Part shown: positions 35,554 to 59,958 of the stretch, piece after piece
Position numbering within the stretch: position 1 is the first letter of the stretch
Layout of the letters: every line of letters begins with the position of its first letter
Source of the DNA: Vicinamibacterales bacterium
Lineage (GTDB): Bacteria; Acidobacteriota; Vicinamibacteria; Vicinamibacterales; Fen-181
NCBI GenBank assembly: GCA_041947015.1
Contig: JBHGBL010000008.1
Coordinates: forward strand, 5,878 to 69,877
Direction of reading: 5' to 3'
Length of the DNA: 64,000 bases
Translations under genes and position numbers: made by a program
The notes under the pieces: model-generated
Seen by the model: the letters and a program-made list of their open reading frames with translations, nothing else
Databases searched by the model: none
Told to the model about the DNA's origin: nothing

Positions 35554-35747
35554 GGACGACAATGCGCTCGGCGGTTCGCCGGTTTGCCAACGGATCTCGT
35601 TTTCGCGCTCGCCGGGACCTGCCATCGGCTGGTCCGTAAACGCCCTCCCACTGCCAATTCGATGCGCCGACCGGTTCGTCAGACCGATGGGAAGCCGGCG
35701 GTCCCGAGGCCTCGCAGAGGCCCGTCGTGTCCACATGGAGGAACCAT

Positions 35748-36578: not shown

Positions 36579-36629
36579 ACCGCTGCCGCCCCGACCGTGT
36601 TCGGGGCCGGCACTCCACAGAGGTTGCGT

Positions 36630-39797: not shown

Positions 39798-40471
39798 TTG
39801 ACCTCAAGATCAACGGCATCCCGGTTTCGGTTGAAAAGGGCACGACGCTGCTGGAGGCCGCGACGTTCCTCGGATTCCCGATCCCCACGTTGTGCCATAT
39901 GGAGGGCCTGACGCCCTACGGCGCGTGCAGGTTGTGCGTGGTGGAGATAGGCGAGGAGCCGAAGGCCAGGCTCGTCTCTTCATGCACGTACCCGGCCGAG
40001 CCCGGCCTCGTCGTGCGAACGGCATCGGCGCGCGTCGTCAGGGCGCGAAGGATGATCATCGAGCTGCTGCTGGCCTCGTGCCCGCAGTCGAAGACAATCC
40101 AGGACCTTGCGTCCGCCCACGCCGTGAGACAGCAGCGGTTCAAGCAGGAGTACGAGGACTGCATCTTGTGCGGCCGCTGCATCCGGATGTGCAAGGAGCA
40201 GATGGCGGCGGGCGCCATCGGGTTCCGCAGCCGCGGCGAGAACCGCAGCCTTGGGACCCCGTTCGACAGGAGCTCCGAGGTGTGCAGGCTGTGCGGTGGA
40301 TGCATCTACGTGTGTCCGGCCTGCCAGCTGCGCTGCACCTACAGCGACCCGGAGAAGGTCATCTGCGGGGGCTGCGCCAACCTCGGGCCGCCCTGCCTGG
40401 AGAAGGAACAGTTCGACGACATGATGTGCTACATGAAGCCCTGTGTGGCTTGCGAGATCCGTAAAGACTGA
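39794..40471 (+). CDS. NuoG/HydA N-terminal-like FeS protein with no catalytic domain
   Basis: IPTLC...GACRLCVVE...SC (2Fe-2S), CILCGRC..MC, CRLCGGC.YVCP, plus an 8-Cys tail. ATGA coupling with the upstream gene. Confidence 0.88.
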   Translation: MIDLKINGIPVSVEKGTTLLEAATFLGFPIPTLCHMEGLTPYGACRLCVVEIGEEPKARLVSSCTYPAEPGLVVRTASARVVRARRMIIELLLASCPQSKTIQDLASAHAVRQQRFKQEYEDCILCGRCIRMCKEQMAAGAIGFRSRGENRSLGTPFDRSSEVCRLCGGCIYVCPACQLRCTYSDPEKVICGGCANLGPPCLEKEQFDDMMCYMKPCVACEIRKD

Positions 40472-40492
40472 CCGGAGAAGGAGGAGACGGAC

Positions 40493-42259: not shown

Positions 42260-43744
<1,485 letters not shown>

Positions 43745-43772: not shown

Positions 43773-45521
43773 ATGGACGAACGAGACAGGCCCGCCGGGC
43801 GTGTCCGCGGCTTCAGGAGCATGGTGCCGTTCGGGTTCCGCGACCTGGTCGACACCATGCTCGTCGAGACCGGAGGCGAACAGCCCGGTGCCGCGATTCT
43901 CGGGCGCATCTGCGAGTCCCTGCTCCGTTTCTCCGGTGCGGACGCCGCCAGCCTGCTCGTCGAGCAGGATGGCGAGGCTACGCGCTGCCTGGCACATGTC
44001 TCCCAGGCAGGAGTTCGTTCGGGGGCGGGCGCCGGGCCGGGCGCCGTCTTCGAAACTTCTGAACGGCCGGAAGCCGATCTCGTCCCCGAAGTGGTCCTGC
44101 GCGCCGTTCTTTCCGGGAGCGTTGCCGCTCCCGCGGAATCCTGCACCCGCGGCGGCAGCTTCTGGACGGGCGATACGGCCAAGCCGATCCTGCTTCGCGA
44201 CCCGGCCGAACACGGTCCCGGCATGCGCACGGTCATAATCGGCGGCAGCTACCCGTCGCTCGCCGTCGTACGGATCCCGATCAGCCGCCGGGCTCGCGGA
44301 GCATTTATCCTTGCGAGTCTTCGCAGGGATTACTTCAACTTCGAGGACATACTGACCTTCGAGACCGTCGGACAGACGCTCGGAGTTGCCTTTGCCCACC
44401 AGCGTGCGCAGTGGGCCCTGCGAGAACGCGTCAAGGAACTGACGTGCCTGTACGGAATCGCTGCCGTGTCGGGGCGGCCCGGAGTCGTACTCGAGGACTG
44501 CCTGCGCGAGATCGCGGCGTTGCTTCCCCCGGCGTGGCAGTACCCGGAAGTGACTGCGGCCAGGATCGTCCTCGACGGCCGCGAGTTCCTGACGCCGGGT
44601 TTCACGGACGCGCCCGCTCGGCTCTCTGCGGCGATTGTAGTAAACGCCGTGGAGAGGGGAGCCGTGGAGGTCGTCTACACTCGGAGGCCGCCTGGCAAGG
44701 ACGGCGACCCTTTCCTCGAGGAAGAGCGCAGCCTGATCGACGAGGTAGCGCGCCGCGTGAGCCTCATAGTCGAGCGCAGGGAGGCCGAAGTCGAGGCCGC
44801 GCGCCTCCAGGAGCAGCTTCGCCACGCGGAGCGGCTCGCGACCGTCGGCCAGCTTTCTGCAGGCGTCGCCCACGAGCTCAACGAGCCACTCGCCGCGGTG
44901 CTCGGCTTCGCGGAACTAGTGAAGACGGCTCCCGACCTCCCCGGCGCTGCAGCGGACGATGTCGATCGCATCATCAAAGCGGCGTTGCACGCCCGCGAGA
45001 TCATTCGGAAACTGATGATATTCACGCGGCAGATGCCGACCACCAAGGTAGCCTGCGACCTCAACCAGATCGCCCGCGAAAGCCTCTACTTCCTCGAGTC
45101 GCGGTGCCGCACGCAGGGCATAGACCTCTCGCGGCAGCTCGAGGAGGGTCTGCCTCTGGTCATGGCCGATCCTTCACAGATTCAGCAGGCGCTGGTGAAT
45201 CTGGTAGTCAATGCCATCCAGGCAACGCCATCCGGCGGTGCGATCAAGGTCAGCACCCGCTCGGAGGCTGATCGGGTCGTGCTCGCAGTGGAGGACACAG
45301 GTCCAGGAATGACGCCTGACGTGCAGCGGAAGCTGTTCACTCCGTTCTTCACGACCAAGGACGTCGGGCAGGGCACCGGCCTGGGCCTCGCCGTCGTTCA
45401 CGGCATTGTCGCGGCGCATGGCGGGACGGTTGACGTCAGGAGCGGGGTTGGTGCGGGTTCGACCTTCGAGATCGCAATACCGGTCGAGCGACCCGCCCCC
45501 GACCCGCTGGAGGCGCGTTGA
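43773..45521 (+). CDS. Cytoplasmic sensor histidine kinase with two GAF-like domains
   Basis: H-box GVAHELNEPL, NLVVNA, DTGPG, PFFTTK, GTGLGL. No TM segments. ERVKELTCLY GAF-like module. Confidence 0.92.
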   Translation: MDERDRPAGRVRGFRSMVPFGFRDLVDTMLVETGGEQPGAAILGRICESLLRFSGADAASLLVEQDGEATRCLAHVSQAGVRSGAGAGPGAVFETSERPEADLVPEVVLRAVLSGSVAAPAESCTRGGSFWTGDTAKPILLRDPAEHGPGMRTVIIGGSYPSLAVVRIPISRRARGAFILASLRRDYFNFEDILTFETVGQTLGVAFAHQRAQWALRERVKELTCLYGIAAVSGRPGVVLEDCLREIAALLPPAWQYPEVTAARIVLDGREFLTPGFTDAPARLSAAIVVNAVERGAVEVVYTRRPPGKDGDPFLEEERSLIDEVARRVSLIVERREAEVEAARLQEQLRHAERLATVGQLSAGVAHELNEPLAAVLGFAELVKTAPDLPGAAADDVDRIIKAALHAREIIRKLMIFTRQMPTTKVACDLNQIARESLYFLESRCRTQGIDLSRQLEEGLPLVMADPSQIQQALVNLVVNAIQATPSGGAIKVSTRSEADRVVLAVEDTGPGMTPDVQRKLFTPFFTTKDVGQGTGLGLAVVHGIVAAHGGTVDVRSGVGAGSTFEIAIPVERPAPDPLEAR

Positions 45522-45522
45522 G

Positions 45523-46890
45523 ATGCCGGCCGTAGAACCCCGGGGCCGCCTGCTCGTGGTAGACGACTCGGCCGATACGACCGAGCTTCTGCGGCGACAC
45601 CTGGTCTCGCGCGGCTACGAGGTGCTGACGGCGGGCGACGTTCGGCAGGCGCTGGCCGTCCTCGATCGCCACCAGGTGGACCTGGTGATAACCGACCTCA
45701 AGATGCCGGGTGCTTCGGGGCTGGAACTCGTGAGGCACGTGATGGCCAACGTGCAGGGCACCCAGGTGATCATGATAACGGGGTACCCCAGCGTCGAAGG
45801 CGCCGTCCAGGCGGTGAAGCTCGGCGCCGAGGAATACCTGCCCAAGCCCTTCACGAAGGAAGAGTTGTTCGCGGCGGTGGGGCGGGCTATGGAGAGGGCA
45901 CGAGGGGCCCGCACCGGACTTCTCGCGGTGCCGTTCGAGCCCCCGAACCCGCTGCGCCTGGTCGCCGCCAGTGAATCGATGCGGCGCGTGATGTTGGCTG
46001 TCCACGAGGCCGCTGCCGGCGCCGGCCCGGTCGTCATCGCAGGCGAGGAGGGCACGGGCAGGCAGCTGCTGGCTCTGGCCCTCCACCACGCGGGCGCCCA
46101 TGCGAACGGGCCGTTCGTCGTCGTGAATTGCGATCTCCCGGAGGATGTCCTCGAGAAGCGGATGTTCCCCGAGCCTGCGGCGACCGAGAGCGGGCTGCCC
46201 GCAAGTCTGTCGTGGGTTGAAGAGGCGAGGGGCGGAACGCTTCTGCTCCGTGACAGCCCGGCGCTGCCGGCCAGGCTCCGGGCGCGGCTGGTCCGCGCGA
46301 TCGATGCGAGTAGAGCCAGCGAACCGGCGGCCGCCAGGTTTCGCGTGGTAGGGACATGCGGCCCGGGGATGTCCCCGGCCGAGCACCTCCCCGGCGCCGC
46401 TGGTGCCGCTGGCGGACTCCACGCCGCAGTCTTCGGGGAGCTTGGCACCCTGCCACGAGCACGGACCATCATCGTTCCGCCGCTGAGGGAGCGGGGCGAC
46501 GACGTCCTCCTTCTCGCTCGCCGCTTTCTCGCCGTGTTCGCCGCGGAGTCGGGCCGCGCAGTGCCGTCGCTCTCGGAGGAGGCAGCCGATTGCTTCAAGC
46601 GGTACCCGTGGCCAGGGAACATAGTCGAGCTTCGAAACGTCGTGCGCGGAATCCTTGCAAGAACCGCCGCGGGCGTCATACGGTCAGGGGACCTGCCGGC
46701 AGGTCTGCGCGCCGGAGCCTCCCTGCGCGCTGACCTCATGCGCTCCCTTGCCGACGTCGAGGCCGAGTACGTGAAGGCGGTCGTCGCCAGCGTAGGCGGC
46801 AACAAGACGAGAGCGGCCGAGATACTCGGCATCAACCGCAAGACGTTGAGGGACAAGCTGCGGCAGAGGGGCCAGGCGGCGCCCTCCTGA
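45523..46890 (+). CDS. NtrC-like response regulator (REC-AAA+-Fis HTH) with degenerate ATPase
   Basis: Intact REC (VDD, TDLKMP, KPF) and HTH (GNKTRAAEILGI). AAA+ lacks GAFTGA, Walker A Lys and Walker B DE. Confidence 0.88.
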   Translation: MPAVEPRGRLLVVDDSADTTELLRRHLVSRGYEVLTAGDVRQALAVLDRHQVDLVITDLKMPGASGLELVRHVMANVQGTQVIMITGYPSVEGAVQAVKLGAEEYLPKPFTKEELFAAVGRAMERARGARTGLLAVPFEPPNPLRLVAASESMRRVMLAVHEAAAGAGPVVIAGEEGTGRQLLALALHHAGAHANGPFVVVNCDLPEDVLEKRMFPEPAATESGLPASLSWVEEARGGTLLLRDSPALPARLRARLVRAIDASRASEPAAARFRVVGTCGPGMSPAEHLPGAAGAAGGLHAAVFGELGTLPRARTIIVPPLRERGDDVLLLARRFLAVFAAESGRAVPSLSEEAADCFKRYPWPGNIVELRNVVRGILARTAAGVIRSGDLPAGLRAGASLRADLMRSLADVEAEYVKAVVASVGGNKTRAAEILGINRKTLRDKLRQRGQAAPS

Positions 46891-46920
46891 CGGCCGCATC
46901 GAGACGCCGGGCAACGCGCG

Positions 46921-48579
46921 ATGCGAAGCACCCATCCGTCCGAAGATGTCACCGTCTACGGCGACGGCGAGCCCGGCGGAAAGGGGGCGGGGCTGATCGC
47001 CGTGAACGGCTGGCGCCTGCCCTGCACTTCCCGGTTGCCCACGATGATCCTCGCAACCGGTTTCTACGACCGCTACCTGGAACGCGGTTGCAGGCTTTGC
47101 GGCGACGACTTCATCGTCCTCAGCGAGATCCTCCAAGCTCTCGGCGAAAGGCCGATCGGGGTGCGGTCTTCGGCAACCGACGAGGCCTGGTCGCCGGGGG
47201 AAGGCCGGACGATCCACGCCGGCGAGAACCTGTCGTTCATGCTTCCCAACAATCACGAGGACAGGGCGGTCCGCCTGCGCCAGCTCGCGCTCGCCGTCCA
47301 GCACGTATACGACGACTTCCACCGAAGGCACGGGCCCGGCTCGAGTGCACGGATGGGAATCGTCATCAACCCAATACCGGGGCTCTTCGATGACACGGCG
47401 GCGGGCCCTTTCTACTACCCGTACGTCTCCGGTGTCGCTGACTCGTTCTTCCCGTACGCACTCAAGAGCCAGGACCCCAGAGAGGGCTACGGGCGCATCG
47501 CCTTCGGCCACGGCTACGCCACGGTGCTGGACGACTTCCCGGTCATCCAGATGGCGACAATCCGGAACCCGCTGCCGCTGAACCTGCTCCAAACCGGCCG
47601 CGGGCAGCAGTTCTTCTACGCTCTTGACCTCACGAAGAACTGGGACCTCCAAGGTGACGAACTCGAGACGATGAAGAAGCTGCACGTGAGGCACGCCAGC
47701 TTCCACCGGGTGAGGCTGCTCGGGGTGCAGGGCCAGATCGTGACGATCGAGAACCTGGTGCAGCAGGATCAATTCGGGTTCCGGACCTCGCTGGCGCGCA
47801 TCATGGAGGAGATAGGTTCCAGGTCGGCCTCGAACTTCCAGATCGAATTCGTCTTCAACCTGGACTTCAGGCGGAAGCCGTGCCGCGAGGGTACTTTCCA
47901 CGTCGTGCAGCTGACCTGCATGCCAAAGACGGCGTGGGACCCGATCGAGATGCCGGCCGGAGCGCTCCGCACGTACCTGTGCACCTCCAGCCTGCAGGGA
48001 CATGGCGTGAGGCGGGGCATCAGGTACGCGGTCGTCGTGTCGCCGTTCCTCTACTCGAAGGACCAGCACGACGCGGTCAGGCGGCGGCTGGCAGAGATCA
48101 ACAGGGGGTTTCTCGGGAGCCGTGAGGAGTACATCCTCGTCGTTCCGGGAAGGCTCGGAAGCAGGAACCGTGATTGGGGCATCCACGTGGAATACGGTGA
48201 CGTCAGCCAGGCGGCGGCGATTTTCGAGTACGGGGTAGACATAGCCGGGCGGGTGCAGCCGCTTCCGGAGGAGAGCGAGATGACCGGCGGCACCTACGGC
48301 AGCCATTTCCTCTATGTCGTGCTGGGAGGCTACAGCGAGGATCAGAGGCGACTGCAGGCCAGGATGCACGGGACGCAGGGCACGCACTTCTTCACAAACC
48401 TCATGAGCGGCAACGTCGTCTACGCTTACGTGTCGCCCACCCAGGACAGCCTCGACCCGTGGTTCTTCTCGCCGCCCGCAGCGGGCGAAGCGGTCTACGT
48501 GCTAACCTTTCCGAGGCCGGCCTCGGTCTTTGCCGACGCGATCAGGCAGAGGTGCCTCGTCGTCGAGGAAGCGGCGTAG
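46921..48579 (+). CDS. PEP-synthase/PPDK N-terminal-like ATP-grasp protein with C-terminal His-motif domain (divergent copy)
   Basis: GGKGAG, GVRSSATDE, SGVADS, IEFV, VVQL. C-terminal PGRLGS...GSHFL...GTHFF. Confidence 0.8.
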   Translation: MRSTHPSEDVTVYGDGEPGGKGAGLIAVNGWRLPCTSRLPTMILATGFYDRYLERGCRLCGDDFIVLSEILQALGERPIGVRSSATDEAWSPGEGRTIHAGENLSFMLPNNHEDRAVRLRQLALAVQHVYDDFHRRHGPGSSARMGIVINPIPGLFDDTAAGPFYYPYVSGVADSFFPYALKSQDPREGYGRIAFGHGYATVLDDFPVIQMATIRNPLPLNLLQTGRGQQFFYALDLTKNWDLQGDELETMKKLHVRHASFHRVRLLGVQGQIVTIENLVQQDQFGFRTSLARIMEEIGSRSASNFQIEFVFNLDFRRKPCREGTFHVVQLTCMPKTAWDPIEMPAGALRTYLCTSSLQGHGVRRGIRYAVVVSPFLYSKDQHDAVRRRLAEINRGFLGSREEYILVVPGRLGSRNRDWGIHVEYGDVSQAAAIFEYGVDIAGRVQPLPEESEMTGGTYGSHFLYVVLGGYSEDQRRLQARMHGTQGTHFFTNLMSGNVVYAYVSPTQDSLDPWFFSPPAAGEAVYVLTFPRPASVFADAIRQRCLVVEEAA

Positions 48580-48631
48580 GAGTGAGGCCATTCGCCGGGC
48601 AGGCCGCACGGCACAGGTAGCAGGTCAAAAC

Positions 48632-49495
48632 GTGGATCAGGTGCTCGTGCTTGCCGCGTCGGAGCAGGTCCGCGCGGCTGGCGCCATCATCGAGTCGGCG
48701 CTACCCGGAACGGTGGTGAGGGTCGAGGCGAACCCTCTCGCGCTGGCCGGCGCGCTGACCGACCGGCCTACCGCCGTCCTGCTCGATGACACGGCGCTAA
48801 ACGTCGCCGGCGCCTCGCTGGAGGCGGCGCGTCGCGGCGACAGCGTCTACGTCCTCCTGTCGGCGCAGCCGCTGGTCGTTTCGGCGCCGGAAGAAATGGC
48901 CAGGAAGGAGTGCCGCTACGTCGACCTGGCAGACCTCATCTTCGCCGTGCCGCCGGCGCTGCCCGTGCCGGAAGCGGTCGTGCTGTCGGCGGTGCGCGCC
49001 GCCGATGACTTGCTTCGTATCGAACGGCGGCGCGAGCCCGGGTTCCCGATCTTCCTCGTCGTGGACGACGAGCCGCGCTGGTTCTCGGTGTTCCTGCCGG
49101 TCCTGTACGATGTCATAGGCCATCGCGCCGCAGTCAGGGTTGCGAGGACATACGAGGATGCCGTTGCATTCCTTTTCGGGACGGCCGACGGGAATCGAAT
49201 AGACGGTGCCGTCGAGGCCGGTCGTTCACGGGATGTGATCGGCCTTGTCACCGACCTCTACTTCCCGCGGTGCGGTGTGGTTTCGGGCGACAGCGGGCGC
49301 GACCTCATCGCTCTCGTCGCTCGTCGGTGTCCACAACTGCCGATTGTGGTTGCCTCGAAGAGTTGCGAGCCGCTGGAGGCGGCCGGTTGCCTTCTCGCTG
49401 TGCGCAAGGGAGAGCCGGGCTTTCTCGAGGCGCTGAGGGCCTGTGTCCGCGATCGTATCGGCCCCGCTTGTTCTGCTCGGACCGCGCCCGGCTGA
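48632..49495 (+). CDS. Tandem receiver-like domain protein
   Basis: FLVVDDE...ARTYEDA...GLVTDLYFP...PIVVAS...RK, homologous to the N-terminal part of 52481..55432. Start uncertain (48530-48632). Confidence 0.72.
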   Translation: MDQVLVLAASEQVRAAGAIIESALPGTVVRVEANPLALAGALTDRPTAVLLDDTALNVAGASLEAARRGDSVYVLLSAQPLVVSAPEEMARKECRYVDLADLIFAVPPALPVPEAVVLSAVRAADDLLRIERRREPGFPIFLVVDDEPRWFSVFLPVLYDVIGHRAAVRVARTYEDAVAFLFGTADGNRIDGAVEAGRSRDVIGLVTDLYFPRCGVVSGDSGRDLIALVARRCPQLPIVVASKSCEPLEAAGCLLAVRKGEPGFLEALRACVRDRIGPACSARTAPG

Positions 49496-49520
49496 CGCTG
49501 GCCGGAGCGGTGGGACAGGC

Positions 49521-50363
49521 ATGCGTTGTTTCTTCGCGACCGACCTGCACGGAGACGAGCGCCGGTACCGCGGCCTCTTCGACGCTGCGGCCGCCGGGAA
49601 TCCCGACGCGGTCTTCCTCGGCGGCGACCTCCTTCCCGCGCTTGCTGGCGCAACTGCCAGAGCTTTCCTCGACGAGGTGGTGGGGAGCGGCCTCAGAGAG
49701 CTTCGGGCCGTTCTCAAGTCGCGCTTCCCGAGGGTGTTCTTCATCCTAGGGAACGACGATCCGCGCCTCGCAGAGCCAGCCCTGCACGCGATGGAACGGG
49801 AGGGCCTCGCCGAGTACATCCACGAAAGGCGCGTGCCGCTCGGCAGTTTCGACGTGTACGGCTACGCCTTCGTTCCGCCCACTCCTTTTGCCCTCAAGGA
49901 CTGGGAGCGCTACGACGTGTCGCGATATGTCGATCCCGGCTGTGTTTCACCCGAAGACGGGCTCTGCTCTCTTCCGCTCGCCGTCGAGGAACGGCGCTAC
50001 GCGACGATCCAGGCGGACCTCGCCAGGCTTGTAGGCGAACGGCCGCTCGACCGCGCCATCTTCCTGTTTCACGGTCCAGCTTACGGTACATCGCTCGACC
50101 GAGCAGCGCTCGACGACAGGCGCGTGGACGGCGTGCCGATGGACGTCCACGTCGGCAGCATCGCCATCAGGCGCTTCATCGAGGAGCGGCAGCCGCTCCT
50201 CACGCTCCACGGGCATGTCCACGAGAGCGCGGCCCTGTCGGGAACCTGGCGGGAACGAATCGGACGAACCATCCTCTTCTCCGCGGCACACTCCGGCCCG
50301 GAGCTGGCGCTGGTGCGGTTCGATCCGGAACGGCTCGACGAAGCTACGCGCGACCTGGTGTGA
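49521..50363 (+). CDS. Calcineurin-like metallophosphoesterase (Icc-related)
   Basis: TDLHG, GGDL, GNDD, FHGP, HGHVHE. Confidence 0.9.
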   Translation: MRCFFATDLHGDERRYRGLFDAAAAGNPDAVFLGGDLLPALAGATARAFLDEVVGSGLRELRAVLKSRFPRVFFILGNDDPRLAEPALHAMEREGLAEYIHERRVPLGSFDVYGYAFVPPTPFALKDWERYDVSRYVDPGCVSPEDGLCSLPLAVEERRYATIQADLARLVGERPLDRAIFLFHGPAYGTSLDRAALDDRRVDGVPMDVHVGSIAIRRFIEERQPLLTLHGHVHESAALSGTWRERIGRTILFSAAHSGPELALVRFDPERLDEATRDLV

Positions 50364-50760
50364 TGTGAATCGGGATGCGGCGCGCCGGATCCCGCGCAGA
50401 TCCAATCTTGACAGCGTAGCTGGTGCGATCGGCCACGTCCTCGGCCGTGACGATGTGGACGTCGAGCATCCCGCCGGCGTCGTGCCCGGTCCGGAGGCGG
50501 TTCGTCTCGCCGAGGCAAAGGCTCCAACCCTCGAGCCAAAGCATCAGGGCTTCTCTCTGAGCGGGCGTGCCCTCGAAGAGCACGAGCAGGTCGATGTCGC
50601 TCCCCGGGCCCGCCGTTGCGTCCTTGGTGCTTCCGATTACGTAGAGCGCCCTCACGCCGAAGCGGGCTCCGTCGAGGTGGGAGCCGAGGCGTTCGGCCAT
50701 CTGCAGCCTCCAACGCGAGTCGTCCCGCAGCAGGTCCCATGCAGCTTCTTCGTTTGCCAT
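50344..50760 (-). CDS. Pol-beta superfamily nucleotidyltransferase domain protein
   Basis: LYVIGSTKDATAGPGSDIDLLV (GS...DxD) and a third Asp in LDVHIV. AGGAG RBS. Confidence 0.85.
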   Translation of the reverse strand: MANEEAAWDLLRDDSRWRLQMAERLGSHLDGARFGVRALYVIGSTKDATAGPGSDIDLLVLFEGTPAQREALMLWLEGWSLCLGETNRLRTGHDAGGMLDVHIVTAEDVADRTSYAVKIGSARDPARRIPIHITPGRA

Positions 50761-50770
50761 GCGGGGCTCC

Positions 50771-52480
50771 TTACCCCGGTTTGACTATCAGCCCGCGGCC
50801 GATACGGCCGTCCACCATGATGTCCAGGGGCGCGGGTAGAACGACATGGCGGGCGAACCTCGATTCGCCCGCTGCCTGCTGCGCATCGAGCCAGGGCCAG
50901 TCCACCTCGTAGGGCTCGCCGTGGCCCACCGAAAAGTAGAGGACCCGGCGGCTGGCAATGTTGTGGAAGAAATGCGACCCGTGGCTCGCCATCACGTCGA
51001 ACTGCGGCAGCGTGGCTTCGACGATGGCGCGAGCGCCCGCGATCTGGCCGAAGTCTGCTGGTATTCCCGCGGACGCGTCGGTGGTTCCCCAGCGGCCGAA
51101 ACCAATGAGCAGGTACGGCCGCCCGCTCGCGACCAGCGCCTGGTTCTCTGCCTCGAGCGCCTCGACGATCTCGGCTCCGTGCCGGGGTTCGAACGCGGAC
51201 GGTTTGACGTAGACGATGTCCCTGATGGTACGCACAATCCCGTTCCCCATCACTCGATCCGAGGCAGCCAGCACCCGTGCGCGCGGGAGGTCCACGACCG
51301 GTACTTCAACCTCTGGGTAGGCAGCTGCCATCGGCCTAACCTGCAGCAGGTCGAACCTCGCCGGCAGCGGCCCGGGCTCGCCGAACGTCATGGCGAACTC
51401 GATCTCGACGGGGCGGCCGATCGCGATGCGCAGGAGGCCGAGCAGATCGACCACGAGGGGGACGAGCGGGATCCGCCGTGCCTTCAGGATTGGTGCGAAA
51501 TCGAGGACGCGCGGCCCGGGCAAGGCTAGCCCCGAGACGATGCGGTCGTCGTCGGCCGAATACGTCGAGGCCAGGAAGGTGAGCGCTCCATCCGCCTCCG
51601 CTTCGGCAAGCGTGTACCGCCTCATCGCACCTCGTTCCAGGCCGTCGGCCCACCTGCCCGCTCGGCAGTCTCCTCCTGAGGCGAGGTCGATGGCCCAGAA
51701 GCTCTTCTGCGTTTGCTCGACCAGGTCGATCGGAGCGCCATAGGGGGGGTTGGCGTGGGGCTGCGCAGGCGAACATCGCCATGCCAGGCCTTCCTCTACG
51801 ATCGTCCGGCCGAGTCCGAGTGCGAGCTCCACCACGCCGTCGTCGGGACGCGCAAGGCCGGCCGCGTAGAAGTTGTACGAGCGCGCGACGCCGGAAATGT
51901 GCGGGTAGAAACGGTCGTTTCGTTCTCTGCCTGCCGCCAGTTGAACGACGACCCCCATCTTCTCGTCGCGATCCAAACGGCCGGACGACGCACGGTATCG
52001 GCGCGCGCTGCGGGCAAAGGCCGACGCGTAAACTCTCTTCACCGCCGCGCAAGCTTCCTCGAGCCTGGTCGCCGGACTGCCGCGGCTCGCAACCATGAGG
52101 GTCGAGTAGACTCCAGCGAAGGGATCCTCCGCGGCGTCCTCCAAAACGCTCGACGAGCGTACAGCGAGAGGGCCACGATGTCGTTCGAGCCACCCTTCGA
52201 GGGCTTGCACGGCGCCGTCAGGGAGCGAGGCGGCAGCGAAAGAGCGAACGAGTTCGTCGTCCGGCGGCTCCCCCCCGGCTGTGAAGCGAGCCAATCCGTT
52301 TTCGTCCAGGAATCTTTCGAAGGCGTCCGTGGAGACTGCAATCAGCGCCGGGATGCCGATTTCCAATCCAGCGAAGAGCCGCGACGCGAGGCCGGCTTCC
52401 GCCAAGACCTCCCGGCCGATGAAAAGGCCTCGGGCCTTGGCGCCGATCTCGCCGCCGCCGTAAACGGCGAAGGGGTCCAT
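50771..52480 (-). CDS. PEP-synthase/PPDK N-terminal-like ATP-grasp protein with His-motif domain
   Basis: IGAKARG, LAVRSSSVLED...FAGVY, EKMGVVVQ, SGVARS, LGLGRTIV, VEIEFA, LQVRP, GRWG, GSHFFHN. Confidence 0.88.
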   Translation of the reverse strand: MDPFAVYGGGEIGAKARGLFIGREVLAEAGLASRLFAGLEIGIPALIAVSTDAFERFLDENGLARFTAGGEPPDDELVRSFAAASLPDGAVQALEGWLERHRGPLAVRSSSVLEDAAEDPFAGVYSTLMVASRGSPATRLEEACAAVKRVYASAFARSARRYRASSGRLDRDEKMGVVVQLAAGRERNDRFYPHISGVARSYNFYAAGLARPDDGVVELALGLGRTIVEEGLAWRCSPAQPHANPPYGAPIDLVEQTQKSFWAIDLASGGDCRAGRWADGLERGAMRRYTLAEAEADGALTFLASTYSADDDRIVSGLALPGPRVLDFAPILKARRIPLVPLVVDLLGLLRIAIGRPVEIEFAMTFGEPGPLPARFDLLQVRPMAAAYPEVEVPVVDLPRARVLAASDRVMGNGIVRTIRDIVYVKPSAFEPRHGAEIVEALEAENQALVASGRPYLLIGFGRWGTTDASAGIPADFGQIAGARAIVEATLPQFDVMASHGSHFFHNIASRRVLYFSVGHGEPYEVDWPWLDAQQAAGESRFARHVVLPAPLDIMVDGRIGRGLIVKPG

Positions 52481-55432
52481 CTAGGCTCCCGGCTTCATCA
52501 CGATGCCCGTATTCGACCGCCCGTCGAGGAGGATCTTCAATGGCGCGGCGCACGCGATGTGCCGGAGGAAGGTCGTTTCGGTCTCGGCCGGCTGGCGTTC
52601 CAGCCAGCAGGTGTCAAGAAGGTCGCCGGGCCGGTGCCGATCGACCGTCAGGTACCCGATCCCGAACGAGACGAGGTTCTGGAAGAAGTGCGAGCCGTCT
52701 GAGGGCTCCACCTCGATGTCGGAGAGTCCCGTCTCGACAATGCATCGCACGCCCGCGATCTGTGCCCACTTGACCGGTATGCCGAGCCACGGGTCGGCGC
52801 TTCCCCACCTCCCCGGTCCAATCAGGAGGTAGGGACGCCCCATCTGCTGGAGCCTCCGGTTCATTTCGCCCACCTCGGCGGCGACCTTCGCGGTATGAGC
52901 GCGCTCGAACCGTTCCGGGCGGACGTAGACGACGTCCGACACGTTCTCGATGCTGCCGTTTCCAAGCGAGGAGTGCGAGACGCAGACCGCCTGGTCGCCG
53001 GCGGTCTCGTCGATTCGAACGTCGTAGGCTTCGGAGCCCAGAACGAGGGGGCGGAGCTGCAAGAAGGCGAACTGGTGCGGCTCTCTGGCGTCGCTCGAAA
53101 GGTTGACGGCGAACTCTATCTCGACCGGGCACGACGCCGCGGCAGCGCCGACCTCGAGAAGGAAAGCGGTGACGTCGGCCAGCGGGAACCTGTGCCCCTT
53201 CAAAATGCTCGCCATGGTGACGAGCCTTGTGCCGTCCCGCGAGATGCCGTCGTAGATGGCGTCGGTATCGGGCGAGTAGACGGAACCAACGGCGTGGAGC
53301 GTACCGTGCTTCTCGGCGACCGAAATGTCCAGCGGCACCAGGTCGGGCGCATAGAGGCTGGACTGCGAGAGGTCGAGCGCGAGGAACGTCCGCTGGGAGT
53401 TCTCGATGTACTCGGCCGGGGTGAACGACTGGATTGGCTTGCGCGGGTGGCGGGGCGAGAACCGCACGCACCTTCCGCCTTCGACGACCGTCTTTCCCAT
53501 CCCGAGCGCCACCGACACCACGCCGTCCTCGGGCTTGACGCCGCCCGTGGCGTAGAAGTTCAGCGAGCGGCCCACGCCGGCGAGATCGGGGTAGAGATAC
53601 TCGCCGTGCGACCGACCGACAACCTGCTGGATGACAACCGCCATCTTCTCTTCTTCGAGACGGTTGGGCAGCGAGGCCATGTATGCCTTGGGGTCGCCGT
53701 GGTAGGTCGACGCGTAGACGCGCTGGATAGCGACGGAAAGCTCCTCCAGCCGCGTTTCCGGGTCATCGGCGTTGTTGGGGGTCATGAACGTCTTGTAGAT
53801 CCCCGCGAAAGGCTGGTACAGAGCATCCTCGAGGAGGCTGGAGGAGCGGACGGCGAGAGGATAGCGGACCCACTGCAGGAAGTCCCACAGGTGCGCGAGC
53901 ACGTCCCGCGGCAGCTCGTGCTCCATGAACGCCCGTGTCACGCGTTCGTCGTCGGATTCCTGAAGCGCGAACTCCATCAGGCCCGACGCGCGCATGAAGC
54001 GGTCGAACACCTCGGTCGTGAGGACGACGGTCGGGGGTACCTGGATGCTGATGCCCGAGAACCGGTTCTGAAGCCCGTAGGCTGATATCAGGGAGTTTAT
54101 GAAGGCGAGGCCGCGGCCTTTGCCTCCGAGCGACCCGTCGCCGATTCTGACGAACCCGCTGCCGCTTTCGAAGGCGCGCGCCGAATAGTCCACGACAACG
54201 CCCGCCACCTGGCGCTGCCGTGTGCCACGTACCGCGTCGAGCAGCGCCTGCCGGAGCGCTCCGGCTGCCGGCGATGCGTCGAGCAGCCTGCGAACGGTTT
54301 CTGCGAGTTCCGCCTGCCCGCGGGCGAGCAGCCAGGTCGAGAAGTCTGGGCGCGCCACGTTGGCCCGAAGCACCTCGTCGGAGACCGCTTCCGCAGCCCA
54401 CTCCAGAGCTCGGAGGTCCGGGACCCGGCTGATCACGCGCCCATCGGGGCCCTGGAACACGAAGTCGCCGAACCCGAGTCGACTCTGCATGAAATTGCGC
54501 AGATCGCCGAGCAGGGTAGGGGAGTTCTTGTCAATGAACTCGAGGCCGACCTCCGATGCCAGGTGCGCGTTTCGCGAGTCCGACTGCATCAGGATAGGGA
54601 GGCCGGGCGAATTCTCGAGGAAGTGCTTCGCTGTGCGGAAGCCGGCGTCGGCTACCACCTTGCCTTGGACTGGAAAGGCGGCGTCCAGGATGACGCCGAG
54701 AAGATGCTCGCGGTGACGGTCGTAGAGCTCGAGAGCCTCCTCGTAGCACCGCGCGAGGAGAACCTTGGGCCGCGCCCGCGCGCGCATCACCTTCTGTGCC
54801 CGGGTGGGACTGGCCGCCTGCAGCGCGTGCACCTGGTTGAAGATCTCGGTGTACAGCATCGGGAGGTACGACGAGTAGAACTGCACCGAGTCCTCGACGA
54901 GGATGATGCTCCTTACGCCGGCGACGCAGGCGTCGTGCCAGGCGTTGCGCCTGTCCTCGACGTTCTTGACGATGGCGAGGAACAGTCGGACGTCTCCGAG
55001 CCAGACGAAGAGGCCATCGACGCCCGAGACCCCGGTTCCGGCCTCGAGCACGCTAGCTTCCCTGGGGCTGCAAGCCAGCAGGACAACGGGGACCTCCGGG
55101 TTCACCGAACGCACGGCGCGCCCGAACTCCGAGACCTCCATGTTGCCGACCCGCGCCATGGAGATCACCAGGTCGAACCGCTCCTTCTGGAGGCGAGCCA
55201 GCGCCTCGGCAGCCGTCGAGACGCGCTGTATCGACGGCGTGAAACGAAGTTCCAAATCCAGGTACTCCGAGAGCAGCATCTCGGAGAACCTCCAGTCCTC
55301 GATGAAGGTGTAGTAGTCGTACAGGCTGCTGACGAGCAGGAGATTGCTGACCTTCCACGGCATCAGGGCGTCGTACGGCACCCCGGCCTCGGGGAGGCTT
55401 CCGACAATCTCGCCGAGCACCGCGTCGCGCAT
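52481..55432 (-). CDS. Receiver domains fused to a PEP-synthase-like ATP-grasp plus His-motif domain
   Basis: N-terminal pseudo-REC plus REC (ILVEDS...VILDAAFP...DKNS), then GGKGRG, AVRSSSLLED, EEKMAVVIQ, LQLRP, GPGRWGS, GSHFFQN. Confidence 0.9.
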   Translation of the reverse strand: MRDAVLGEIVGSLPEAGVPYDALMPWKVSNLLLVSSLYDYYTFIEDWRFSEMLLSEYLDLELRFTPSIQRVSTAAEALARLQKERFDLVISMARVGNMEVSEFGRAVRSVNPEVPVVLLACSPREASVLEAGTGVSGVDGLFVWLGDVRLFLAIVKNVEDRRNAWHDACVAGVRSIILVEDSVQFYSSYLPMLYTEIFNQVHALQAASPTRAQKVMRARARPKVLLARCYEEALELYDRHREHLLGVILDAAFPVQGKVVADAGFRTAKHFLENSPGLPILMQSDSRNAHLASEVGLEFIDKNSPTLLGDLRNFMQSRLGFGDFVFQGPDGRVISRVPDLRALEWAAEAVSDEVLRANVARPDFSTWLLARGQAELAETVRRLLDASPAAGALRQALLDAVRGTRQRQVAGVVVDYSARAFESGSGFVRIGDGSLGGKGRGLAFINSLISAYGLQNRFSGISIQVPPTVVLTTEVFDRFMRASGLMEFALQESDDERVTRAFMEHELPRDVLAHLWDFLQWVRYPLAVRSSSLLEDALYQPFAGIYKTFMTPNNADDPETRLEELSVAIQRVYASTYHGDPKAYMASLPNRLEEEKMAVVIQQVVGRSHGEYLYPDLAGVGRSLNFYATGGVKPEDGVVSVALGMGKTVVEGGRCVRFSPRHPRKPIQSFTPAEYIENSQRTFLALDLSQSSLYAPDLVPLDISVAEKHGTLHAVGSVYSPDTDAIYDGISRDGTRLVTMASILKGHRFPLADVTAFLLEVGAAAASCPVEIEFAVNLSSDAREPHQFAFLQLRPLVLGSEAYDVRIDETAGDQAVCVSHSSLGNGSIENVSDVVYVRPERFERAHTAKVAAEVGEMNRRLQQMGRPYLLIGPGRWGSADPWLGIPVKWAQIAGVRCIVETGLSDIEVEPSDGSHFFQNLVSFGIGYLTVDRHRPGDLLDTCWLERQPAETETTFLRHIACAAPLKILLDGRSNTGIVMKPGA

Positions 55433-55488
55433 GACCTTCCCCGGCTGGCGTTACAGACGGCGCCGACATAGCGGCGCCCATCGAACCG

Positions 55489-58242
55489 TCACATCACGCG
55501 TTCGGATGCATCCGCCAGGAACCCGATTGCCTCGTCCTTGTCGCCGTCCATGATGACGTTGAGCTCACGGTTGCCCGCGGCTTCGGCCACATCGATCACC
55601 CTCACGACGTTCTCGAGGTACGCGTACTCCGGGAGCAGCGTCGCCAGCGAGTTGGGCGCCGTGCGGAAGAACTCCTCGTTGAAGACGATCCCGTCTTCGT
55701 CGGGGTAGAGCGCCAGGTAGCGTATCTTCGCCTCGACCAGGTCCTGGAAGAAGTGCGTGCCGAAGGACAGGTCGGGGACGTAGCCGCCCTTCTTGCGCGC
55801 GATCTCGACGAGGAGCGCCGTGTTCGAGATGCCCGCGTATGTTACCCGAACACCGAGCGTAATATCCCCTCGGCTCCCCCACCGGCCGGGGCCCATGAGC
55901 GCGAAGCCGCGCCGTGGGAGCACCGTGTTCAGTCGGCTCACCGCCTCGCCGACCGCGATCATGTCCGTCATTTTCGAAAGGCCTGCGTACCCCGTCGGAT
56001 CCACGTAGACGATGTAGCGGATCCCTCGCACCTGGGCGGTGCTCACGTAGCGGTTCGCGGTGAAGAGCTTGCGAGACTCCGGGATGCCGGACGGGACAGG
56101 CACGCGCCGCTCGTCGCCGCCGCCGCTTTGCGGCCGGCACTGCACTATGTAGAGATCCTTGCCGTCATGTGCGAACTCGACGTCCACCGGCGCCCCGATC
56201 GCGTCCTTCAGCGCGGCCATGATCTCCTTCATCTGCTTGAGAAAGTCGGTGCCTTCGAGCAGCCCGGCGAAGGTGACCACGACGTCATCGGACTCGGGCC
56301 GGAACGTCAGGCCCATTGGGCGCCGCAGCGTGTCGTTCGAGTAGACCGAGAAGATCTTGTCGATCATCGGCATCCGGCGCCCGACCTCCCGGAGCAGGAC
56401 CTCGATCCGCGGCGACTCGAAGCGCCCGGTCTGCATGTTGAGGACGTCCACCTGATGCTGCGAGTAGTGCCTGATCTCGTCGGGCGTCACGTTGACCCGG
56501 AGGCCAGGTTGGCCTGGACAGACAAGCACCGGATAGTCGTCGCCCACGCGATCCACGGCCCGTGTGCCGAGGCCCATCACCATCCTTATCGCGCCGTCCT
56601 CGCGCCGGATCCGGGGCGACCACCTGAACTCGTTCTGGCTGAATGCGACCCCTGCGAACGCCGGCAGGAAGTAGCGGCCGACGCGGACCCCGACGACACG
56701 CTGGATGAGTACCGCCATCTCCTCCATGAAGTCCACGAGGTCGCGTTCCTTCCGGTACTGGATCGGGTCAGGGCCGAAGAGAGACGCGTAGATCTCGGCT
56801 ATGGCATCCGTAAGAGCAGCCAGGCGCTCTTCCTTTGTGCCGGCATTGGCGAGGAACAGGCTGCGGTACTTGCCCGAGAACGCGGCGCCCTCGTTGTCTT
56901 CGAGCAGGCTCGATGAGCGGACAACCAGCGGCCAGTCGCCCAGATCGTCCAGCGCGAGCTTCAACCCGTTCAGCAGCTCGGGCGGGAAGAACGAGTGCTT
57001 GAAGGTCTGCTCGAGGTACGGGTAGCTCTGGCGCACCTCGTCGACCGGGTAGTACTTGAAGCTCTGGATGTCTTCAAGGCTGTTGTAGCGAATGAAGTCC
57101 AGGAGCCCGTCCGACGTCACCACCCACGTGTGCGGCACCCTGACGCGCTCGATGAGCGGGTTGCCGCGGCCCACCTTGCGCAGGATGTGCTCGGCGAGGA
57201 ACAAGCCCGTTGCCTTCCCCCCGAGCTTCCCGTTCCCGCGAGGCGGCCCGATGACTCGCGAGAGGATGCGTCCGAAATCATGGATGGTCAGATAGCGCTT
57301 CGCGATGCCGATGAGCGACAGGCGGTCGCTCAGGAACCGCCGGATCAGGGCCACTCTCGCGTTCAGGTCGTCTGACGGCGCAAGCGCAGCCTCTCCCTCC
57401 TGCGCGGAGCGGCAGAACCGGTTGACGATGTCGCTCATCTCGATGAGCGGCAGGTCTCGCTGCTCGGAAGCCACCGTCAGGAAGCCCAGCTTGTCCTGAC
57501 GTATCCACTGTTTCAGGAGCGTCGAGAGTGCGGCGTCGGGCACGGTTATCGACGCAACCCGGATGATCTCCTCGAGCACCCGGTTCAGCGTCTTCATGTC
57601 CTGCTTGGGTAGCGGCTGGTTCCCCCCTCCACTCTCTCGTTCGCTGTAGAGAGCGGGGTCGAGCTGCTGGATCAGCCGCTGGACTCCCGGCACGCCGAGC
57701 TTCGAGAGGTGGTTCATGAGCCGGCGAAGCAAACGCCGCCACAGGACCGGGTCGGTTTCCTCCAGCAAGTCGAGGACGATCTCCCACTCCGGCTTCTGCA
57801 CAGGCGCCTGAGACTCGATGTGCCCGGCGTGACTGGCCTCGGCCAGCCTCTCCTCGATTGCGCGCCCGAGCCAGCGCGCAATGGTCTGGATGAGCTTCCG
57901 CTCTTCCAGAAGGAACGGATCGTCCCCGTCGTGATCCTCGAGGTAGGCAACCTCGAGGCTGCCGACGAACTTGCCATCGGCGACGATGTTCGCGCGCTGC
58001 ATCCACTGAGTGGCCTCGAAGCCAGCCGTCTGGTAGACCGAGTCGGCGTAGGTAATTCGGGCCCTGCACACCTCCGGGCGCTGCCACCCCATCGGAAGGG
58101 TTTCGACCACCTGGCGGAGCACCTCATCGATTGGAAGGTCCGCCCTCTGGACGATATCCGAAACGGCGTACAGGCACTGGAGCTCCTTGGCCCGCTCGGT
58201 CAGGTGCGCTGTGGCGGTCTGCTCCCGTCGTTCGGTGGCCAT
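55489..58242 (-). CDS. GAF-like sensor domain fused to a PEP-synthase-like ATP-grasp plus His-motif domain
   Basis: ERAKELQCLY N-terminal domain, GGKATG, VRSSSLLED..FSGKY, EEMAVLIQ, GLGTRAV, VEFA, VQCRP, GPGRWGS, GTHFFQD. Confidence 0.9.
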   Translation of the reverse strand: MATERREQTATAHLTERAKELQCLYAVSDIVQRADLPIDEVLRQVVETLPMGWQRPEVCRARITYADSVYQTAGFEATQWMQRANIVADGKFVGSLEVAYLEDHDGDDPFLLEERKLIQTIARWLGRAIEERLAEASHAGHIESQAPVQKPEWEIVLDLLEETDPVLWRRLLRRLMNHLSKLGVPGVQRLIQQLDPALYSERESGGGNQPLPKQDMKTLNRVLEEIIRVASITVPDAALSTLLKQWIRQDKLGFLTVASEQRDLPLIEMSDIVNRFCRSAQEGEAALAPSDDLNARVALIRRFLSDRLSLIGIAKRYLTIHDFGRILSRVIGPPRGNGKLGGKATGLFLAEHILRKVGRGNPLIERVRVPHTWVVTSDGLLDFIRYNSLEDIQSFKYYPVDEVRQSYPYLEQTFKHSFFPPELLNGLKLALDDLGDWPLVVRSSSLLEDNEGAAFSGKYRSLFLANAGTKEERLAALTDAIAEIYASLFGPDPIQYRKERDLVDFMEEMAVLIQRVVGVRVGRYFLPAFAGVAFSQNEFRWSPRIRREDGAIRMVMGLGTRAVDRVGDDYPVLVCPGQPGLRVNVTPDEIRHYSQHQVDVLNMQTGRFESPRIEVLLREVGRRMPMIDKIFSVYSNDTLRRPMGLTFRPESDDVVVTFAGLLEGTDFLKQMKEIMAALKDAIGAPVDVEFAHDGKDLYIVQCRPQSGGGDERRVPVPSGIPESRKLFTANRYVSTAQVRGIRYIVYVDPTGYAGLSKMTDMIAVGEAVSRLNTVLPRRGFALMGPGRWGSRGDITLGVRVTYAGISNTALLVEIARKKGGYVPDLSFGTHFFQDLVEAKIRYLALYPDEDGIVFNEEFFRTAPNSLATLLPEYAYLENVVRVIDVAEAAGNRELNVIMDGDKDEAIGFLADASERVM

Positions 58243-58275
58243 CGAGGGTCTCCCATGCAACATTACATTATCGAC

Positions 58276-58300
58276 AAAAAAGCCCGGGGTCGCAGCCGGG
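58276..58300 (-). terminator. Intrinsic terminator-like hairpin downstream of the second GDH
   Basis: Minus strand CCCGG-ctgcgacc-CCGGG-C-TTTTTT. Confidence 0.6.
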
Positions 58301-58443
58301 ATCCGCTGGGCGGTCCGGTGCGTCCCGGGCCTCGTAGAGAAGTCCCTGAATCAATAACTACAACCTATAACCTATGAATCATAACGCCTCGCCGGCCCCC
58401 CGTCGCCACTCCCGTCGAGTCTGCCCGGAGAAGCCGCACTCGC

Positions 58444-59736: not shown

Positions 59737-59814
59737 GTTTCTCCTATCGGGGGCTCGAGTGAAGCGGGAAAAGGGGCAGAAGGATAGCGGGCCCCGGGAC
59801 CGGGACCAGCCGCC

Positions 59815-59843
59815 AGAGTAGTTTGACGGGGCAGCCAAGTCAA
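59815..59843 (-). promoter_or_regulatory. Sigma70 promoter of the second GDH operon with overlapping inverted repeat
   Basis: Minus strand TTGACT-17 nt-TACTCT. TTGAC-N11-GTCAA palindrome at 59823-59843. Confidence 0.6.
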
Positions 59844-59958
59844 GCGACCGCCCGGCCGAAGGCCCTGGCGGGCAGGTCTTTACAGGGCTGGTATGTGCTA
59901 ATGTTCCCGCGGCAGGCGGGCTCGCCTGGCCGGCAATCGTCGCCTCCAGACTGACTCT

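Follow-up and report, generated by a model that had tools for sequence, protein, structure and literature searches.

A compact GAF-fold module on a histidine kinase and a PPDK_N protein within a glutamate dehydrogenase gene cluster of a Vicinamibacterales bacterium

A 64-kb stretch of a Vicinamibacterales genome (assembly GCA_041947015.1, contig JBHGBL010000008.1), referred to as a whole as the window and numbered throughout from its first letter, encodes two copies of a GAF-fold module of about 120 residues, for which we coined the name mini-GAF. One copy lies within a soluble histidine kinase and the other at the N terminus of P0004, a protein with a PPDK_N ATP-grasp domain and an invariant histidine, so that the module links an ordinary two-component pair with conserved, unstudied PPDK_N/His enzymes that travel with a gene for glutamate dehydrogenase (GDH). 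We consider it rather probable that, within a GDH-centred control cluster, both proteins take their regulatory input through the mini-GAF, the kinase and its regulator forming one branch and the PPDK_N enzymes another, which would act on GDH2, the second of two dehydrogenases encoded there, or on its surroundings. An earlier note on this DNA had aligned the two segments by eye and proposed that one ligand drives both proteins; that interpretation is supported in part, namely for the homology, the fold and the way in which GDH recurs together with a kinase and a PPDK_N protein that both have a mini-GAF, while the single ligand is not.

Homology and fold of the two copies

Translation of 44418-44783 (+) and 58203-57845 (-) reproduced the peptide strings quoted in the earlier note, and both segments lie inside real genes, one for a HisKA/HATPase_c kinase and one for a PPDK_N protein. 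In a single BLASTP comparison with composition-based statistics, the two copies share 46 identities over 121 positions (38%) with 2 gap positions, at 78.2 bits and an E-value of 7e-25. The likeness is far beyond chance, and the homology suggested by eye is confirmed by this pairwise alignment. Searched in all six frames, the complete assembly (4.39 Mb in 36 contigs) yielded exactly these two copies at E<=0.01. When both copies were scanned, no Pfam-A or NCBIfam model was found to cover the mini-GAF. The Pfam GAF profile PF01590 reaches one copy (P0002) with its last third only (E 0.024, 15.6 bits against a cut-off of 22.4), the other copy (P0001) gives no Pfam GAF match at E<=0.1, and the module stays below the gathering thresholds of PF01590, PF13185 and PF13492. 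A sequence search of the PDB with the mini-GAF gave no significant match either (best E 1.6).

The fold was predicted with AlphaFold2 from a 28-row alignment (A2), giving a confident model of 119 residues (predicted local distance difference test, pLDDT, 92.8; predicted template modelling score 0.87). Its topology is a1-a2-b1-b2-b3-b4-a3, with helices at residues 2-18 and 25-39, strands at 46-52, 55-58, 68-75 and 78-87, and a last helix at 99-118; it replaced a poor, all-helical model made from a single sequence (pLDDT 67.3). Scanned with VIA-align against 48,161 chains, the model had its best matches (Z 12.3-11.4, 109-115 of the 119 residues aligned at 2.0-2.8 A) among GAF domains, including those of a cyanobacterial phytochrome, NLH2/NLH1, a Pseudomonas kinase, PtsP and NifA. 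The top 50 rows (Z 12.3-8.3) are almost all of GAF fold: 15 titles name GAF outright, one row (DosP) is a PAS region, and most of the others are phytochromes, PDE2/5/6, CodY or fRMsr, which we take to be GAF-fold proteins. The best PDB matches found by Foldseek were GAF domains as well (best E 4.9e-4). With its antiparallel sheet and terminal helices, the model places the mini-GAF in the GAF superfamily at fold level, as a compact version of that fold; the label GAF-like in the earlier note is therefore right by predicted structure, though the Pfam GAF score is below cut-off. A homodimer prediction (two copies, alignment A2) returned no answer (score 0.01) and weighs neither way.

The mini-GAF shares this fold with the canonical GAF domains of the three Pfam families named above and of NifA, NLH1/NLH2, PtsP and the phytochromes, and in both groups the domain stands N-terminal to kinase or enzyme outputs with terminal helices able to couple onward. 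It differs from them in being about 30-70 residues shorter, its 119 residues aligning to solved-GAF chain spans of about 140-190, and in having signature motifs of its own and a conserved Cys. In the model, a conserved 9-residue loop (59-67) between strands 2 and 3 replaces the canonical lid helices, and the canonical ligand pocket with such helices is not present.

The family to which the module belongs is very large. A profile of the two window copies, searched over 1.84 billion cluster representatives, matched 10,288 of them at E<=1e-3, 8,206 at E<=1e-10 and 1,262 at E<=1e-30, while a word-indexed search with the 119-aa domain alone returned one protein among 9 candidates and was uninformative owing to its length window. 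The mini-GAF is carried by 154 of 156 proteins (150 listed matches plus six window proteins), with 2-5 tandem copies in 102 of the 154. The consensus of 265 full-length copies reads L.ERVKEL.CLY ... PP.WQYPE ... ARI ... T.NF.ET.W.Q ... G..EV.YLEE ... GPFLKEER.LI, from which the signature KELxCLY ... WQxPE ... PFLxEER can be drawn, and the residues conserved family-wide are E7, L8, C10, L11, P37, I50, F62, G81, E84, V85, Y87, P96, F97, L98, E100, E101 and L104. Partner domains were tallied by a Pfam scan of the first 54 and the next 74 representatives among the 150 listed matches. Histidine kinases are found in 24 of the first set (HisKA and/or HATPase_c) and 18 of the second (HATPase_c), followed by GerE/LuxR (8 and 3), MCP (2 and 3), PPDK_N (2 and 3), Pkinase (1 and 3) and STAS (1 and 2), with GGDEF in 2 of the second set. 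The first set also contains one representative each with HTH_8, DUF835, V4R and HAMP only, four with PAS only, one with a weak GAF only, one with a weak unrelated family and six with no partner family; about 28 of the 74 in the second set also have PAS domains, and in some family members the mini-GAF is placed between PAS or GAF domains and the output domains. The mini-GAF is thus a general-purpose, modular signalling unit. As the standard models miss a GAF subfamily of more than 10,000 representatives, the input domain is probably absent from the annotation of many signalling proteins.

The kinase, the PPDK_N enzymes and their genomic setting

The kinase is of the HisKA type, with HisKA (PF00512, E 5.1e-10, residues 359-419; H-box AHELNEPL) followed by HATPase_c (PF02518, E 2.5e-28, residues 466-572). 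Residues 1-215 have no Pfam match at E<=0.1; they do match ESM Atlas clusters that are 90-100% Pfam GAF/GAF_2 (feature score 0.97) and structures whose aligned parts are named GAF/GAF_2 (TM-score 0.60-0.72). This full-size GAF could be a second sensor, without counterpart in P0004. As read from the sequence, the last mini-GAF helix runs into the HisKA helix with no Pro/Gly break, and such a continuous connection to the phospho-acceptor helix suggests that the mini-GAF probably gates autophosphorylation of the kinase; in P0004 the module is followed by a Pro-containing linker. No transmembrane-like segment was found in either protein (for the kinase, the highest mean Kyte-Doolittle value over any 19-aa window is 1.39), so that any cue would be intracellular. 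In the kinase orthologues of loci L046, L051, L054 and L061 (open frames of 392-448 aa), one mini-GAF is the only domain before the kinase core. In some other orthologues (L042, G019:C4, 8136-10274; L056; L055) a tandem mini-GAF pair replaces the full GAF and the single mini-GAF.

The partner regulator matches Response_reg (5.8e-27), AAA_lid_14 and HTH_8 in Pfam, and Sigma54_activat at only 1e-15, over profile positions 2-121 of 168. Judged by eye, GAFTGA is absent, Walker A reads GEEGTGRQ and Walker B reads RD; the protein does not have the intact AAA+ domain and GAFTGA of a sigma-54-dependent NtrC-type activator. The genome has rpoN elsewhere, and a scan for sigma-54 -24/-12 elements gave 5 weak matches (9 of 11 specified bases), none of them in the non-coding DNA that precedes GDH1, GDH2 or the PPDK_N operon. 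On these grounds, the transcriptional arm that had been envisaged for this pair is probably not sigma-54-dependent, and the degenerate regulator itself is probably neither an ATPase nor reliant on that factor. The window pair is therefore like the known pairs of GAF/PAS-HisKA kinases and NtrC-family regulators in its HisKA, HATPase_c, receiver, AAA+ and HTH_8 domains, and differs from them in its missing GAFTGA, its altered Walker motifs and the lack of a -24/-12 match between the genes of the cluster. By eye, TTGACA-like and TAAAAC-like hexamers precede GDH1, while TTGACT and TACTCT precede GDH2.

Four paralogues of one PPDK_N family are encoded in the window: P0004 with the mini-GAF, P0005 with a receiver, P0006 with neither, and a divergent protein of 552 aa. 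The first three contain the PPDK_N ATP-grasp domain. In P0004, whose database copy P0157 (917 aa) is 100% identical, it is the only Pfam domain (PF01326, E 2.8e-52, residues 346-720), and the 206-aa linker has no Pfam match at E<=10. P0005 is 30% identical to P0004 over 527 columns, C-terminal domain included; a PDB sequence search with P0006 found nothing significant; and the 552-aa paralogue, for which no Pfam or NCBIfam match was obtained, retains the GRxGS and G(S/T)HF motifs. In the C-terminal domain all 47 aligned members of the family agree at H837, at R794 and at several Gly, G793 among them. The C-terminal domains of three paralogues have no Pfam match at E<=10, including to the swivel family PF00391, and a profile of the domain compared with 19 genuine swivel domains from this genome and 12 relatives gave an hhalign probability of 0.1%; the genome's three PF00391 matches are all on other contigs. 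At this level of comparison the paralogues do not have a swivel phosphohistidine domain, and a resemblance of G-S/T-H-F-F to the T-S-H motif was dropped as unsupported by hhalign. The domain may be a remodelled carrier domain. No Pfam family for a PEP/pyruvate (PEP, phosphoenolpyruvate) TIM barrel is among the matches for P0004, P0005 and P0006. With an ATP-grasp domain and an invariant His, no swivel match and no barrel, these proteins are dikinase-like only through the first two.

Orthologues of the catalytic part of P0004 number at least 7,999 candidates at E<=1e-10. The top 120 share 61-87% identity with it; they are named 'PEP/pyruvate-binding domain-containing protein' and trace by source name to Acidobacteriota, Holophaga, Mesoterricola, Aminicenantes, Riflebacteria, Deltaproteobacteria and Bipolaricaulota. 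One N-terminal mini-GAF is present in 113 of them; the 7 without it are 602-815 aa long and may be fragments. This distribution points to a fusion that is ancestral to P0004. Within the phylum, an orthologue at E<=1e-50 occurs in 59 of 201 sampled genomes, and some of these matches begin at about residue 150, without the mini-GAF. The mini-GAF on P0004 and the receiver on P0005 argue that these enzymes are regulated. The earlier proposal that the dikinase-like proteins are signal transducers rather than metabolic enzymes we would call plausible.

Known systems resemble P0004 in different respects. EI-Ntr/PtsP likewise has an N-terminal GAF-fold domain on an enzyme of the PEP-utilising superfamily, and one report describes control of autophosphorylation by the PtsP GAF in a system that is tied to nitrogen status and senses glutamine (PMC4848567). 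PtsP, however, has the EI swivel-His domain and a PEP-binding barrel and uses PEP, whereas P0004 has only the PPDK_N ATP-grasp and an unrelated-looking His domain, and its GAF is of the compact type. VadK (Rv1127c) is described as a truncated, barrel-less PPDK relative that autophosphorylates on His422, interacts with methylcitrate-cycle enzymes, tunes flux through that cycle, and is proposed to regulate metabolic enzymes and not to make PEP (PMC13400623). By this description it is like the P0004 type in combining an ATP-binding domain with a His-bearing domain and no pyruvate/PEP barrel; it differs in its size of about 50 kDa, in a His domain that is overlaid on the PPDK swivel, and in that no sensor domain is described for it in the sections considered (PMC13400623). 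Finally, when the ATP-grasp part of P0004 is compared by sequence with the PDB and NCBIfam, the best matches are rifampin phosphotransferase and PEP synthase (PRK06241-like dikinases; 5hv6/5fbs, E 1e-5 to 7e-5; PEP synthase models, E 1e-15 to 6e-16). These matches cover only residues ~371-528, every score is far under its family cut-off (57.8 against 598 bits), and P0004 differs from both enzymes in having no swivel match and no substrate domain.

The link with GDH was examined in 29 mini-GAF PPDK_N loci from other genomes, with 1.5-kb flanks. In 16 of the 29, L023 with its gap of ~0.9 kb among them, the PPDK_N gene is preceded on its own strand by an orthologue of GDH2 (65-76% identical). Another PPDK_N paralogue is upstream in 8 loci, an orthologue of the window's metallophosphoesterase (50-58% identical) downstream in 8, and a GDH1 orthologue downstream in one. 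L024, L025 and L027 have none of these neighbours, the last two being shortened by contig ends, and L035 has the phosphoesterase downstream only. Nine loci from a separate contig scan gave the same picture, but at least three of these (L008, L010 and L011) are the same contigs as L020, L013 and L018 and so are not independent. The order of GDH1 (78% identical), kinase and regulator recurs in L010/L042. A literature search found no paper on an association of GDH with PPDK_N proteins.

Whether the kinase copy travels with the PPDK_N copy was followed in the 201 genomes, with counts made by hand over two search tables. The two-copy profile matches 44 of them, with 1-4 matches each. In 34 of the 43 other genomes a mini-GAF is on a PPDK_N orthologue; 14 of these 34 have further copies, and the remaining 20 have no further mini-GAF at E<=1e-5. 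We examined 20 regions around extra copies, and in 17 the extra copy lies in a histidine kinase adjoining an NtrC-type regulator. Six of the 20 regions (L042-L047) were chosen as spanning a mini-GAF PPDK_N gene and a second mini-GAF, and all six contain a mini-GAF kinase and an NtrC-type regulator. The kinase is a close orthologue (53-57%) of the window kinase, with GDH genes in between, in L042, L043 and L046, and of a different type in L044, L045 and L047. L056, from a genome without a P0004 orthologue at the threshold applied, keeps the order kinase, regulator, 552-aa paralogue and 321-aa protein. The window arrangement thus recurs in several families of the phylum without being obligatory. 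GAF-regulated kinases and a GAF-regulated PEP-family phosphotransferase are already known; what is new is the compact GAF subfamily outside the standard models (judged by Pfam/NCBIfam coverage), its conserved fusion to a GDH-linked PPDK_N/His enzyme, and the recurrent pairing of that enzyme with a mini-GAF kinase.

Cue, lineages and alternative roles of the mini-GAF

Bacteria use GAF domains as one of their principal means of sensing small molecules. In the reading that we favour, the kinase and P0004 would both be cytoplasmic, with the mini-GAF acting as a regulatory input in each. The kinase copy, set between the full-size GAF and the phospho-acceptor helix, probably gates autophosphorylation, and the gated kinase would in turn control a regulator that does not look sigma-54-dependent. 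In P0004, where it is the sole sensor-type domain, the module probably controls an enzyme of ATP-grasp type that has an invariant His; the most likely target of this enzyme would be GDH2 or something formed around it. The mini-GAF-gated and receiver-gated ATP-grasp/His enzymes would form the second branch, with the phosphoesterase as a likely antagonist. Both copies would report cues at the glutamate/2-oxoglutarate node, not necessarily the same molecule.

Several observations weigh against this reading. The most conserved mini-GAF motifs sit in the first and last helices, so that a role in transmission or dimerisation fits as well as a sensor role, and the modelled domain is without the lid helices that shape the pocket in canonical GAFs. 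The 20 genomes of 34 that have no second mini-GAF make the kinase arm optional. As the C-terminal His domain has no detectable similarity to swivel domains, the dikinase chemistry is only assumed. In addition, a GC-rich hairpin with a T-run lies at 58283-58300 (-), between the GDH2 stop and the P0004 start, and by this terminator-like element GDH2 may be a separate transcription unit. In a consensus scan of 50300-60100, which gave no promoter-like and 4 terminator-like sites, such terminator matches were no more frequent than in shuffled sequence.

The earlier note held that both mini-GAFs bind one metabolite, with glutamate, glutamine or 2-oxoglutarate as candidates, and so drive a transcriptional and a post-translational arm in parallel. 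The two genes do lie in a single GDH-centred cluster, the arrangement recurs in L042, L043 and L046, and the residues conserved family-wide are present in both copies. The GAF of NifA binds 2-oxoglutarate, and both NifA and PtsP are among the top fold matches, but tied with many other GAFs. For PtsP, binding of glutamine by its GAF domains has been reported (PMC4848567). The three metabolites are reasonable guesses from the gene context and the PtsP precedent. Against a common ligand stands first the phylogeny. A tree of 150 mini-GAF copies (122 columns, quick search) has low resolution, with 73 of 146 inner branches open, but all 36 PPDK_N-attached copies, together with two copies from one other protein, form one clade with a Shimodaira-Hasegawa-like approximate likelihood ratio (SH-aLRT) support of 99. 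The window kinase copy is nearest to copies of kinase orthologues (best 59% identity), a group placed with weak support (81) as sister of the PPDK_N clade, and among the 27 other A2 sequences it shares the lowest identity with the PPDK_N copy (38%, in a range of 38-62%). Column statistics over 15 kinase-type, 120 PPDK_N-type and 90 diverse copies show that the PPDK_N type conserves W67 (95%), T65 (80%), R70, C46, G39 and K103, and the kinase type R80 and D53. The window kinase has Ala at 65 and 67 and differs at the other four PPDK_N-type positions as well, and the W67 and T65 differences fall in the b2-b3 loop, which stands where the GAF lid would be. Same-genome pairs are also no more alike than cross-genome pairs (37% for the window's own pair against a mean of 36.3%, and similarly in 7 further pairs). 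We infer that the two copies belong to old, separate family lineages. Since the mini-GAF is promiscuous across many outputs, sharing it implies no shared ligand, and the lineage, residue and co-occurrence results remove the argument from a shared domain to a common ligand. With the additional full-size GAF of the kinase, which could be the true sensor of that protein, and a PPDK_N copy that occurs alone in 20 of 34 genomes, the claim of one ligand for both arms is left unsupported, and we regard it as unlikely.

A second alternative, to which we give the same low credence, is that the mini-GAF is ligand-free and either relays the signals of other domains or only holds dimers together. Many PAS, GAF and HAMP units are structural transmission or dimerisation modules of this kind. 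The compactness of the mini-GAF at 119 aa without lid helices agrees with such a role, as do the concentration of conservation in the first helix (KELxCLY) and where the last one begins (PFLxEER), the tandem arrays of up to 5 copies, the positions between PAS/GAF and output domains, and its place behind the full-size GAF in the window kinase. However, it is the sole sensor-type domain in the PPDK_N orthologues (113 of 120) and in the four short kinase orthologues; W40, Q41, P43, F62, W67, G81 and Y87, described as loop residues, are also strongly conserved; and each lineage has conserved loop residues of its own, as expected of specific binding sites.

It is more doubtful that the mini-GAF works as a thiol/redox switch or cofactor-binding unit through the conserved Cys of helix 1 (C10). 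This Cys is invariant in the 28-row alignment and occurs in 100% of the 15 kinase-type, 85% of the 120 PPDK_N-type and 77% of the 90 diverse copies, and the cluster adjoins NuoE/NuoF/GltD-like redox enzymes; yet it is absent from 15-23% of copies in the latter two groups, and no other Cys or His that could partner it in a metal or cluster site is among the residues conserved family-wide. That the two copies are alike by chance or composition, for which only the many spurious open reading frames (ORFs) of a GC-rich genome can be cited, is practically excluded, having been refuted by the BLASTP E-value under composition-based statistics, by the 8,206 proteins that the two-sequence profile retrieves at E<=1e-10 and by the confident fold prediction.

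A more elaborate form of the regulatory-input reading can be drawn, and we offer it as a speculation that is improbable in its entirety. The mini-GAF would be a widespread and so far unrecognised family of metabolite or redox sensors that, in Acidobacteriota and other phyla, coordinates two-branch control of GDH. The kinase and its NtrC-like, sigma-54-independent regulator would set transcription, while the mini-GAF-gated and receiver-gated His-dependent dikinase-like enzymes would covalently modify GDH2 and the metallophosphoesterase would reverse the modification; the kinase could also phosphorylate P0005 and so join the branches. The cue of the mini-GAF, if identified, would give an experimental handle on the role of the GDH-linked system, and would show whether central nitrogen metabolism of these soil bacteria is under the control of a VadK-like regulatory dikinase.

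Coordinates and neighbouring genes

Table 1. Features of the mini-GAF cluster in window coordinates, with the main evidence for each.
Feature	Position	Strand	Evidence or remark
GDH1, NADP-type glutamate dehydrogenase	42383..43744	+	NCBIfam PRK09414, 767 bits (cut-off 536); directly upstream of kinase
Soluble histidine kinase, 582 aa (full-size GAF, mini-GAF, HisKA, HATPase_c)	43773..45521	+	Pfam
Full-size GAF-type domain, kinase residues 1-215	43773..44417	+	ESM Atlas feature and structure matches
mini-GAF copy 1, kinase residues 216-337	44418..44783	+	Domain E 1.7e-67 against two-sequence profile
NtrC-family regulator (receiver, degenerate AAA+, Fis-type helix-turn-helix)	45523..46890	+	Pfam; begins 2 nt past kinase stop
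Divergent PPDK_N-like paralogue, 552 aa	46921..48579	+	25% identical to P0006 over full length, BLASTP E 2e-18
321-aa protein, function unassigned	48530..49495	+	Weak OKR_DC_1_N match only (E 6.5e-4); adjoins 552-aa paralogue
Calcineurin-like metallophosphoesterase	49443..50363	+	Pfam Metallophos, E 1.3e-6
P0006, PPDK_N-only paralogue, 569 aa (ATP-grasp, C-terminal His domain)	50771..52480	-	PPDK_N E 4e-27
P0005, receiver-PPDK_N paralogue, 983 aa	52481..55432	-	PPDK_N 6.3e-36; Response_reg 1.4e-5, below cut-off
P0004, mini-GAF PPDK_N protein	55489..58242/58263	-	917 aa from ATG at 58242; 924 aa from 58263
C-terminal domain of P0004, ~200 aa, common to all four paralogues	55492..56103	-	GRWGS and G-x-H-F-F motifs; invariant His837
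mini-GAF copy 2, residues 21-139 of the 924-aa reading of P0004	57845..58203	-	
GDH2, second glutamate dehydrogenase, ~430 aa	58444..59736	-	ELFV_dehydrog 3.6e-72, ELFV_dehydrog_N 2.4e-52; directly upstream of P0004

The GDH1 gene (Table 1) starts with an ATG served by an AGGAGG ribosome-binding site, and GDH2 probably starts with the GTG at 59736, which a GGAG ribosome-binding site precedes. Against the NCBIfam model GdhA_Arch, GDH2 scores 459.7 bits, below the cut-off of 750. An ORF of 360 aa from an ATG at 58379-59461 (-), which had been listed as a gene (unk360), was rejected as a wrong-frame ORF inside GDH2. The P0005 stop abuts the P0006 start (52480-52481), the gap between P0004 and P0005 is only 56 nt, and the three genes look like one operon. 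In L056, the gene after the 552-aa orthologue encodes an orthologue of the 321-aa protein (39% identical).

Directly upstream of GDH1, a run of redox genes occupies 35727-42094 (+). It encodes a NuoE-like 2Fe-2S protein, a 1066-aa fusion of NuoF and a GltD-like part, a Fer2/Fer4 protein and a 533-aa protein in which glutamate synthase is represented by its FMN region alone, and it looks like an NADH-linked glutamate-synthase-like complex. The last two genes of this run are also found beside a mini-GAF PPDK_N gene in L003 and L004.

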